Part shown: piece by piece, positions 50,281-53,200 of the stretch
Position numbering within the stretch: position 1 is the first letter of the stretch
Layout of the letters: every line of letters begins with the position of its first letter
Origin: Myxococcota bacterium
GTDB taxonomy: Bacteria > Myxococcota > Kuafuiibacteriia > Kuafuiibacteriales > Kuafuiibacteriaceae
Assembly: GCA_965223435.1 (NCBI GenBank)
Contig: CBDCWQ010000023.1
Location: forward strand, 71,381 to 135,380
Reading direction: 5' to 3'
DNA: 64,000 nucleotides
Position numbers and translations under genes: made by a program
The notes under the pieces: generated by a model
Told to the model about the DNA's origin: nothing
What the model saw: only the letters and a program-made list of their open reading frames with translations
Databases searched by the model: none

Positions 50281-53200
50281 TTAAGGGATGTCGTGGTCGT
50301 TTATTGCCTTGCGAAGGGCGTTTTGGCGCGCCGTGTCCTCGTCTGGACCCTCGGCTTCGGCAATCGGGATCCGCTTCTTGCCCGCGAAAATCTTGACCCG
50401 GTGGCCGTTGCTCGTGGCTGTGAACTGGTATGCCGGAAGGCCGTATTTCGACATCGACCAAAGGGTTAAGCGTAGGGCGTCTTGAGACCACGGGCTGGCA
50501 ATAGCCATGGGGTACTTTTCGAAAGTGAGAAAGGGCTGAAGAATGGCGCGGACGAGCGCCATGCCACCTTGGACGTAGGCGAGGCCCACGAGGAGTCGCA
50601 AGGTGTAGCGTAGCCCCGACGAAAACGACCGGTCCGGGGCCGAAGTATCCAGAACGTCTGCGAGGCCAAGTCGCCACGCGTAGAGTGCGAGGCCGCTGTT
50701 GAAGTCTCCGATGAAGGACTTGAGTTTTTCGACGCTCCTCTTTGGGTGTCCAGAAACGGCTGCCTCGGCGAACACGAGGGCGATGACCCGGTCGCCGAGG
50801 AGGCTCAGCCGTTCGGCGTGGTGAGCATATACAGACCCGCGGGTCGCATAGCGGATGCTGCTTGGCGTAGGGAGTTCGACCGGGAGGAGATCCAGGATGC
50901 GGCGCTCCGCGTCGGTCAGCGGACTGCTTGCCAACGGCGGAAACTGTAGCGCGAGAGACATCGGCCTTGGGAGTTGAGACTCTTCGCGAGCGAGGGCCGC
51001 TTTAAGTTCCGGATTGGATAAGAAGATTTGCTTAAGCGCTTCGGCCTCTGCGTTTGGGCCGGTGGTCTCGGCGATGACCTCTTTGCCGATCCACACGGTT
51101 GTCTGGGGGCTTCCGTCCTTATCCAAAATGGTGTCGTACTTGAGTTCTCCGGGAAGTTTGAAGCTGATGGGCCCCAAAGCCCTCAACATAGACCATTTTT
51201 CTCCCTCGGTGAGTTTTTGCGCTGGCGGTACGAGCAGTGGAATCAGGGACGGTTTGATGGATGAGATATCGCCCTCGCTTTCGTAATGCATGGCGCCAGC
51301 CAGCGAATGAAAAGCGCTTACCAGGACTGCGTCGACTTGACGCCGATCTTCTTTTTTCCGCTGTAACCTGAGCCAGTCTTCCAATCCCAGAGTCCGAGCA
51401 CTCGCCGCGAGGTTTGCCGGCGAATGGGGCTCGGCGGCCAACAATCCGATTTGGGTCGCATCTCGTTTCGGGAACCGCTCTGCCGTGTCGTGCGCCAAGA
51501 GAAGGCTGAAAACCTGTTGGCCGACAAGCCCCAAGGTCTCGAATTTTGACTCGGAGTATAGGGTAGGATGGGTCGTCGCGTGACTGAGGAGGTTGGTGTT
51601 CGAAAACGCAAAGCCCAGTTCGTCTTCGAGCTCCGGGAGGGTTCGGGTCGCGCCTCCGGCTCCGGCGCTGGTGGGGAGCGCGGACGCAAGACGAGGCGGA
51701 ACTTCGAGTGCAAGACGCGTTGTTCGGTCTCCTGGCGGTACCCAGACGCGGGGTTCGGATTTCCACGTGCTGCCGGGCTGAAGATCTTCGCCGGGTACTT
51801 CGTTGCGGGTGATCGCATCCTGGACCGCTTCTCGTTCAGAGTCGCTGGGGCTCGGGCCTTCGCCGGATCCCAGTACGTGGTGGGCAGCCCGTATTTCAGT
51901 GTAGTATTGATTGCCTTTCCGTTCGGTGAGATAGGTCGGTGCGTGGCCAAGTCCTTCATGGCTCCAAAGAGCCAATCGAAGGTGCTCGGGGCTCGTGGGA
52001 TGCGCGATTTGCTTTGGCGCCCCACCGTAGTCAAAGAGCGGTTCGATCATCTCGTCCACGGCGTCGAGGCCAGAGACCACAAAAACGAGCCCCGCCATGG
52101 CTCTGAATACGTGGGATAGCGCTTCTCCGTAGTTCTTGGCGCGCGGCGCAGCGGAGCCCAGGAACTTTCCCAAACCAAGTTTGAAGGCCCAGGTGGGGTG
52201 CCACGCGCGGGTTGTACTCTCATGTCTCATGGGCTCTTCGTAGTACCCGACGTGTCGCCTTCTCTGAACCAGTTCGAGCACGGCTCTGCCGAGGGCGGCC
52301 AAATGTTGATTTTTGACCCAATGCACGTTGGCTTTAAGGACGTAGTTCACCAACTTGGGGTCTGGGACAAAGCGCGCAAAGGATTGTGCCAGGGCTTCCT
52401 CTTCAGAAGTGAGTGCGTCCTCGGGGGGCGGAAACTGGGTGCCCAAGGGCACAGCTTGGTTTGCCTCAGATGATGAGAAGAGTTTTTGGAGCAGCGTATC
52501 GTGGGTTGCGTACACGTTGGCCAGGGCGGCGGACTTGCCGGTGGCGGCATCGGGTGTCGCTGCTTCTCCTAGGCCTTGGCCGTTGACCAGGATCTGGGTC
52601 TTGTGCTGCCCGTCGTGGTCACGGAAGTGCTCGTAGCGGGTACGCACCCCAGGGCCATAGGTTTCTCGCGCCCAGGTCCGAAAAACAAACCACCGATCAT
52701 TGAAGGTGAGGGTTTCGTGCGGAATAGCAAACCACGGCTCCATATGGGTGGCTACGGGCCCCAGTTGATCCGCATCAAGGAACATCGCCGCGATCAGGGC
52801 TTCGACGGCATCCGCAGGTGTTTTCTCCTTGTTTCTGAAGTTGCGTTCTTCACCCACGAAACTGACGTTGAAAAAGCGTGGAAGCTCCAATTGTTGGGCC
52901 AACACGTTGAGTGCGAAGTTGTTGACGACTTGCTCTCGGAGTCTCTTGAGATGGGCGGAGGACTTGGCGGGGAACTGTTTCATCTGTCCGGTGATGGCGA
53001 CGACCTCGAGGACCGCATCGCCCAGGTACTCGAGCGATTCGAATTCGGTGGTTTCGGGGCTCAGTGCCTGTTCAAGAAGGTGTTTTTTGGTGAAGGTGTA
53101 GCCCAGTGACTTCTGAAGCGTTGAAACGTGCCCGGGCGCCAGTCCGGGAAGGCGCGAGAAAGTGGTCAAAAGCCCCCCCCCACCAGGGTGGGTGATCGTT

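Follow-up and report, generated by a model that had tools for sequence, protein, structure and literature searches.

A duplicated RNase III–dsRBD array with a single conserved live module at the C terminus of a giant Myxococcota protein

In the textbook division of RNase III enzymes, the bacterial enzymes are symmetric homodimers, obligately so in the case of class 1 bacterial RNase III, and the eukaryotic Drosha and Dicer enzymes are asymmetric dimers formed within one chain. In the trypanosomatid RNA-editing endonucleases, a live RNase III domain is paired with a degenerate partner and one strand of the duplex is cut. The mitoribosomal protein mL44 carries a dead RNase III domain and a tail like a double-stranded RNA-binding domain (dsRBD), both put to structural use. 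The array described here comes from a 64,000-nucleotide stretch of DNA from a Myxococcota bacterium (assembly GCA_965223435.1, contig CBDCWQ010000023.1, positions 71,381 to 135,380), referred to below as the window. It lies at the C-terminal end of a giant open reading frame (ORF), D, and consists of four consecutive RNase III–dsRBD modules, M1 to M4, of which M1 alone keeps the catalytic acids. The small family to which D belongs places an asymmetric, single-site design, duplicated and with a dsRBD on every nuclease domain, in what appears to be an exported bacterial protein.

Literature searches turned up no account of tandem RNase III arrays in bacteria or of a secreted toxin module made of RNase III, and no paper was found that describes small bacterial proteins with a live and a dead RNase III domain in tandem. 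The nearest published mention is a fusion of HEPN, RNase III, and dsRBD domains in cyanobacteria (PMC3710099). Judged by sequence, the array appears to be a very rare, undescribed build of double-stranded RNA (dsRNA) nuclease, most likely within a secreted toxin.

A duplicated unit with one live module

ORF D occupies positions 50281..63948 of the window on the minus strand and encodes 4555 amino acids (aa) before the window ends with the frame still open. An exhaustive protein search recovered the full product, P0001. It is 4762 aa long and agrees with the window ORF at every position from residue 208 to 4762, while the N-terminal 207 aa fall beyond the window end. A preliminary description of the window, drawn from the letters of the DNA, had proposed four consecutive RNase III and dsRBD units at the C terminus of D. 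This is confirmed over ~950 aa by Pfam, TIGR02191, hhalign, a dsRBD profile, and AlphaFold, and the four-module array is genuine, far beyond chance. In the numbering of the window ORF, M1 covers aa 3605-3845 (window 52414-53136), M2 aa 3846-4100 (51649-52413), M3 aa 4101-4340 (50929-51648), and M4 aa 4341-4555 (50284-50928), all on the minus strand. The motif strings quoted in the preliminary description are all present, at residues 3636, 3712, 3883, 3945, 4136, and 4210.

The RNase III domain of M1 (aa 3607-3740; 52729..53130, minus strand, as for all the domains of D) has its catalytic residues intact (E3637, E3640, D3644, D3713, and E3716). It is found by Pfam (PF00636, 57.6 bits, above the cut-off), by the AlphaFold model, and by phmmer against the PDB, where Drosha and E. 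coli RNase III are matched at E ~1e-13. The degenerate domain of M3 (aa 4104-4242; 51223..51639), paralogous to that of M1, is recognized by module comparison and by Pfam PF14622 at 30.9 bits (E 3.5e-7), slightly under the cut-off. The Pfam RNase III signal is weak for the degenerate domains of M4 (aa 4344-4476; 50521..50919; E 0.02), which is paralogous to M2, and of M2 itself (aa 3848-3982; 52003..52407; E 0.13), where the catalytic positions read Q/A/R/H/R. Evidence for these two comes from hhalign, together with the AlphaFold model for M2 and module comparison for M4. A profile of the nine M2/M4-type modules of the family aligned with 30 canonical bacterial RNase III proteins at a probability of 99.2% and E 1.7e-19, over 200 columns that take in both the nuclease domain and the dsRBD. 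With TIGR02191, the NCBIfam model of full-length RNase III, D has matches in four separate stretches that sum to 139.9 bits, and the best stretch reaches profile position 198 of 219, which lies in the M1 dsRBD.

Behind each nuclease domain AlphaFold places an alpha-beta-beta-beta-alpha topology. The dsRBD-like domain of M1 (aa 3749-3815; 52504..52704) is supported by this topology, by the profile comparison with the PDB, and by TIGR02191. That of M2 (aa 3987-4048; 51805..51990), supported by the AlphaFold model, the profile comparison, and hhalign, is followed by a low-confidence linker up to aa 4100. The M3 domain (aa 4250-4320; 50989..51201) is seen in the alignment and in the profile comparison, and the M4 domain (aa 4488-4555; 50284..50487), which forms the C terminus of the protein, is seen with AlphaFold, the profile, and hhalign. 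The M4 tail shows the alpha-beta3-alpha fold already in a single-sequence AlphaFold run (predicted local distance difference test score, pLDDT, of 55-76). A profile built from 17 module tails and compared with the PDB has only dsRBDs as its top matches, including T. maritima RNase III (4.2e-5), the Drosha dsRBD (1e-4), and Staufen (4e-4). Profile searches thus identify each of the four units as RNase III and their tails as dsRBDs. Pfam dsrm (PF00035) has no match above threshold in any D tail. Among the relatives of D, one B-module tail (that of P0005, below) clears the dsrm cut-off, at 23.9 versus 23.

The modules are more similar in alternation than in sequence along the chain. M1 pairs with M3 (E 4e-14) and M2 with M4 (E 7e-19), and M3 matches M4 at E 1e-6. 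Since the closest pairs are M1/M3 and M2/M4, the array is read as a duplicated two-module unit, A-B-A'-B'. A short "QFPP"-type linker is found between A and B in all family members and one relative has a lone A-B pair, which further argues that the A-B unit is the evolutionary building block.

Relatives of the array are few. An exhaustive phmmer search of 1.84 billion representative proteins returned only four true relatives, for a family of five, so any experimental characterization would be new work. The relatives are singleton clusters from NCBI/ENA, found on large contigs. P0002 (3800 aa, 42% identity over the array), P0003 (1057 aa, 39%), and P0004 (1878 aa, 38%) all have four modules, with M3 lacking a dsRBD in P0004, and P0005 (3162 aa, 27%) has one A-B pair. 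A conserved core of ~540 aa, found in D at 59449..61068 on the minus strand, is common to all the large members and to the paralogs of D within the window. The fusion of this core with the array recurs in three other large proteins, each on a separate large contig.

Other searches found no further members. No match came from a word-index search for homologues of the 951-aa array, and scans of the GTDB representative genomes with array peptides and with the core profile returned no relative. A metagenome scan based on the array alignment picked the generic RNase III N-terminal motif and yielded nothing but ordinary rnc genes (E 1e-11 to 3e-16). A neighboring hydrolase in the window has a best homologue that is only 37% identical. 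The empty GTDB scans and this distant homologue indicate that the source lineage is poorly sampled.

The distribution of catalytic residues is the most consistent feature of the family. As the preliminary description had stated, the acids E41, D45, D114, and E117 (E. coli numbering) are found solely in M1 of D. Each of the five proteins has them intact in its first module, with P0005 having E at 114, and the metal-binding acids of M2, M3, and M4 are lost in every member. This live/dead pattern persists across proteins that are only 27-42% identical. With the acids kept in the first A module alone, there is one predicted active site per 950-aa array, and the claim of a single live catalytic center in M1 extends from D to the whole family. 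Conservation is equally strong in the dead modules and in the live one (mean pairwise identity 36-40%), and the dead modules retain the signature-helix glycine and the hydrophobic residues of the RNase III dimer interface. In seven of the nine B-type modules an Arg occupies the E117 position.

These observations bear on the suspicion that D could be an assembly chimera, a gene-call fusion, or a decaying pseudogene of duplicated rnc genes. Nothing specific speaks for such an artefact beyond an unusually long gene with three of four domains lacking catalytic residues, and it is extremely unlikely: the reading frame is unbroken over 13.7 kb, base composition is even across the D region, the core-plus-array fusion is found on separate contigs (the fifth member, P0003, has the array only), and the dead modules are as strongly conserved as the live one.

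The array is a member of the RNase III superfamily. Each module resembles class 1 bacterial RNase III (Rnc), as known from E. coli, Aquifex aeolicus, and Thermotoga maritima, in having a nuclease domain followed by a dsRBD, and M1 retains the signature ExLExLGD, the DxxE motifs, and the N-terminal helix. Unlike Rnc, the array strings together four modules, of which three are dead, in a single chain, has lost the dsRBD contact motifs, and is part of a giant scaffold that is probably secreted. An ordinary rnc gene was considered and rejected: TIGR02191 is the equivalog model for the housekeeping enzyme, a stand-alone protein of ~220 aa, and the 139.9 bits of D fall below its cut-off of 166.25 in a match that is fused to a giant protein.

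The likeness to Drosha and Dicer lies in the placement of more than one RNase III domain in a chain (two in these enzymes), in the predicted intramolecular center, and in the fact that they are the top PDB sequence matches of M1. Both of their domains are catalytic as opposed to one of four in the array, which differs further in its dsRBD on each nuclease domain, its duplicated unit, and its bacterial, apparently exported context of >4700 aa. No PAZ, helicase, or central Drosha domain was found in D by Pfam. With one live domain, a dsRBD per domain, and none of these additional domains, the array is not a Drosha or a Dicer. Horizontal transfer from a eukaryotic Drosha or Dicer gene was also considered and found no support, M1 being equally close to the bacterial enzymes and to Drosha. 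The N-terminal helix of M1 matches bacterial Rnc, and the second RNase III domain of Drosha aligns over this helix as well.

The M1–M2 model and the pairing of modules

An AlphaFold model of M1 and M2 together (496 aa), built on a 37-row alignment of the family's two-module units and canonical enzymes, has a pLDDT of 89.1 and a predicted TM-score (pTM) of 0.85. Both modules, including the degenerate M2, take a confident RNase III/dsRBD fold in this model, so the concern that the degenerate units might adopt an unrelated fold is not borne out for M2. Foldseek searches of the model against the PDB rank single chains of Drosha first (E 5e-10, TMq 0.42-0.44 over ~525-550 aligned columns); single chains of DCL3 and Dicer come next (TMq 0.37-0.42). 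Lone chains of homodimeric bacterial RNase III reach a TMq of 0.24-0.30, and an isolated nuclease domain gives 0.25 at 1.5 Å. The TM-scores with Drosha and Dicer are well over what a single domain contributes, which indicates that both nuclease domains superpose together on the Drosha/Dicer processing center. The model thus lends indirect support to M1–M2 as a probable intramolecular pseudo-dimer with one active site. The preliminary description had gone further in suggesting two intramolecular pseudo-dimers with a single live center. For M1–M2 that suggestion is backed, indirectly, by the model and its Drosha/Dicer match; for M3–M4 it stands by homology.

A different quaternary arrangement would make M1 a classical homodimer, formed either by two copies of D or by M1 with the live domain of a 1476-aa paralog encoded in the same window (28525..32955, plus strand). 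It would make double-strand cuts, and M2 to M4 would be accessory RNA-binding modules or structural repeats. The obligate homodimerization of class 1 bacterial RNase III fits this arrangement, and so does the sequence of M1, which is nearest to bacterial-type enzymes, including in its N-terminal "LQKSLGYTF" helix. The paralog has one live domain and no partner domain, and it must therefore homodimerize, if it is active. The homodimer is nevertheless judged unlikely for D. AlphaFold sets M1 and M2 in one confident, Drosha/Dicer-like assembly, every family member has the A-B unit with its conserved linker, and the dimer-interface helix is kept in the dead modules, as would be expected for dedicated partners.

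If the intramolecular arrangement is correct, module A (RNase III and dsRBD) and module B (dead RNase III and dsRBD) would fold together in the manner of Drosha or Dicer, and the M1–M2 pseudo-dimer would dock on duplex RNA, where M1 would cleave one strand. The former catalytic pocket of M2, which in B modules often has the Arg at the E117 position, may grip the opposite strand without cutting it. The dead M3–M4 pair could serve as an additional duplex clamp, a spacer, or a platform for protein docking. The trypanosomatid editing endonucleases offer the closest functional analogy to a single-site pseudo-dimer. The analogy is one of mechanism only: in the mitochondrial complex the live and dead domains sit on different polypeptides, and these have no architecture in common with the array.

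Export and the proposed toxin role

In the explanation favored here, given a probability of about one half, the giant protein is exported and carries several effectors, and the array is its RNA-targeting warhead at the C terminus, built as a Drosha/Dicer-like pseudo-dimer with one active site. The protein would leave the producer by Sec-dependent export and act outside it on the RNA of prey, a competitor, or a host, and the array would operate beside other effector-like parts of the same chain. The toxin and export aspects draw on the signal-peptide-like N-termini, the swapped C-termini of the paralogs, a signal resembling the toxin Scabin, and a nearby TcB/TcC-Rhs gene and secreted hydrolases.

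By inspection, signal-peptide-like N-termini are found in P0001, P0002, P0004, P0005, and the window paralogs, and none is seen in P0003. In P0001 the hydrophobic segment is followed by a "GWNL" motif, which comes after clear signal peptides in the window paralogs and relatives, again by inspection. Three ORFs of the window (7642..15795, 28525..32955, and 33284..46339) share the N-terminal part of D and the ~540-aa core and have different C-termini. The 2717-aa paralog (7642-15795, minus strand) has a C-terminal region with an HExxH motif (VHELGHALYF), the 1476-aa paralog, apparently exported, has one RNase III domain at its end, complete in its catalytic acids and lacking a dsRBD, and the 4351-aa paralog (33284-46339, plus strand) has LamG and leucine-rich repeat (LRR) modules. 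This looks like cassette-style variation, and a constant N-terminal part and core with a varied C terminus is the pattern by which polymorphic toxins are recognized. Rhs/Tc and MARTX-like toxins resemble D in that paralogs keep the N-terminal scaffold and exchange the enzymatic modules at their C-termini, in the signal peptides, and in the Rhs neighbor. They differ from D, which lacks an immunity gene, any known pre-toxin or processing domain, and RHS/YD repeats.

A tentative Scabin/pierisin-like ADP-ribosyltransferase region lies at aa 2806-2939 of D (55132..55533, minus strand). When a three-sequence profile of this region (aa ~2806-2939) is compared with the PDB, Scabin is matched at E 1.2e-3 and its catalytic Glu is among the aligned residues. 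The corresponding part of P0002 reaches 24.8 bits with the Pfam Scabin-like family, under the cut-off of 27.

Several points weigh against the proposal. On the structural side, a single-sequence AlphaFold run of the whole 951-aa array is poor (pLDDT 38.5), the geometry of the pseudo-dimer is deduced from pTM and TM-scores only, and the pairing of M3 with M4 is carried over from M1–M2 by homology. The Scabin-like signal is weak, with D itself giving no Pfam match there, and no known pre-toxin, processing, or translocation domain was detected in D. No immunity-like gene is found downstream of D, where the next gene encodes a 691-aa lipoprotein. RNase III is not a cataloged toxin domain of polymorphic toxin systems, and the term occurs 0 times in a large survey of these toxins (PMC3482391). 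Finally, the RNA-contact motifs of dsRBDs, GPxH in the loop and KKxAK at the N terminus of helix 2, are absent from all four D tails. They are missing in most relatives too and are retained only in the B module of P0005. Their absence makes dsRNA binding by the D tails doubtful.

The loss of these motifs also suits a reading in which the whole array is a noncatalytic pseudo-enzyme scaffold like mL44, making protein-protein contacts or binding nucleic acid outside the cell or at its surface. Tails without RNA-contact motifs resemble the protein-binding type B dsRBDs, three of the four nuclease domains are dead, and mL44 is among the structural matches of the M1–M2 model and among the PDB matches of the module-tail profile. 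mL44 is a ribosomal protein, and the array, unlike it, keeps one strictly conserved live domain. The retention of all M1 acids in five proteins that are otherwise so diverged is hard to explain without catalysis and makes a pure scaffold quite improbable.

An enzymatic role of a less specialized kind would be that of an extracellular or surface digestive enzyme of a predator or scavenger, with the array degrading structured RNA from lysed cells. The lack of an immunity gene is compatible with this, as are the exported architecture and a locus with large surface proteins and many secreted hydrolases, among them a clostripain-like peptidase and a TAP-like hydrolase. One active site inside ~950 aa of specialized partner modules is an odd design for bulk digestion, however, and the Scabin-like ADP-ribosyltransferase signal and the adjoining Tc/Rhs toxin suggest targeted toxicity. 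A digestive role is accordingly regarded as unlikely.

Should the array be active, it would represent a dsRNA nickase that occurs in nature, and toxin modules directed at RNA would gain a new class. It would also offer a compact system in which to study the influence of dead partner domains on the specificity of RNase III. A bolder version, speculative and with the odds well against it, is that a poorly sampled bacterial lineage independently built a single-site Drosha-like center and exports it on a giant multi-effector toxin that nicks particular structured RNAs within the cells of its prey or host.

The surrounding locus and other tandem RNase III proteins

Upstream of the array, the N-terminal 3604 aa of D have no sequence relative in the PDB, and Pfam scans by segment across the middle of D are empty. 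A conserved PG(V/L)APG segment comes before the array. The ~540-aa core is rich in invariant residues, such as NVVTEHNLDVLSVLNH, AIDNCSWLALSVDY, and SYHLEATAGL, and has no Pfam relative, no PDB match by profile, and none in the GTDB representative genomes.

P0003 has only ~110 aa ahead of its array, and these match the segment directly upstream of the array in D. A truncated gene could have this layout, and so could an orphan C-terminal cassette. A length of 2,023,055 bp is recorded for the contigs of both P0003 and P0001, so the two probably lie on the same contig.

The window as a whole is an island of large, apparently exported proteins that includes an immunoglobulin-repeat protein, an LRR/receptor-L protein, the clostripain-like peptidase, the TcB/TcC-Rhs toxin, and the TAP-like alpha/beta hydrolase. 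It has no tRNA genes. The TcB/TcC-type Rhs toxin gene (22450-28404, plus strand) has SpvB, FG-GAP, and TcdB middle/N regions followed by RHS repeats and core, and its variable C-terminal region of ~310 aa gives weak lipase or alpha/beta-hydrolase signals at most. In the 1476-aa paralog, the motifs of the C-terminal RNase III domain read EWLEYVGD and ADAFEAM, and the absence of a partner domain gives a Mini-III-like layout on a scaffold that appears to be secreted. The predicted 691-aa lipoprotein (48030-50105, minus strand) lies directly downstream of D after a 175-bp gap. It has no family match, and its N-terminal part is of low complexity and rich in Pro, Glu, and Asp.

The exhaustive search that defined the family also found small tandem RNase III proteins in bacterial contigs, each with one live and one dead domain: P0021 with 439 aa and P0023 and P0154 with 499 aa. 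Domain 1 is the live one in P0021, which is present on 19 contigs. In P0154 it is domain 2, and the gene, on a 4.44-Mb contig, has a canonical rnc (250 aa) immediately before it and uvrA close by. Within the extracted loci (L001-L004), the genes lie at 4001-5320 in L001 and L002 and at 4001-5500 in L004, and the neighborhoods are ordinary bacterial ones, with LemA, radical SAM, UvrA, and canonical rnc. These proteins differ from the array in being short, with two domains and no giant exported scaffold, and they are not closely related to it (E ~1e-11).

The occurrence of small live/dead proteins in bacterial neighborhoods means that tandem RNase III is not restricted to eukaryotes. The preliminary description had taken RNase III domain pairs as a hallmark of eukaryotic Dicer and Drosha, a statement that needs softening. 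If the bolder version given above is true, the array and the small tandem proteins would together show that a eukaryotic origin need not be assumed for the heterodimeric RNase III design, which has been regarded as an invention of eukaryotes but would have precedents in prokaryotes.

A further giant, P0006 (2391 aa, from JGI/Logan and outside the window), is unrelated to D and has a tandem pair of complete RNase III–dsRBD units, both with intact catalytic residues. By eye, the N-terminal part of P0006 resembles a helicase and seems to be followed by repeated units of ~70 aa.

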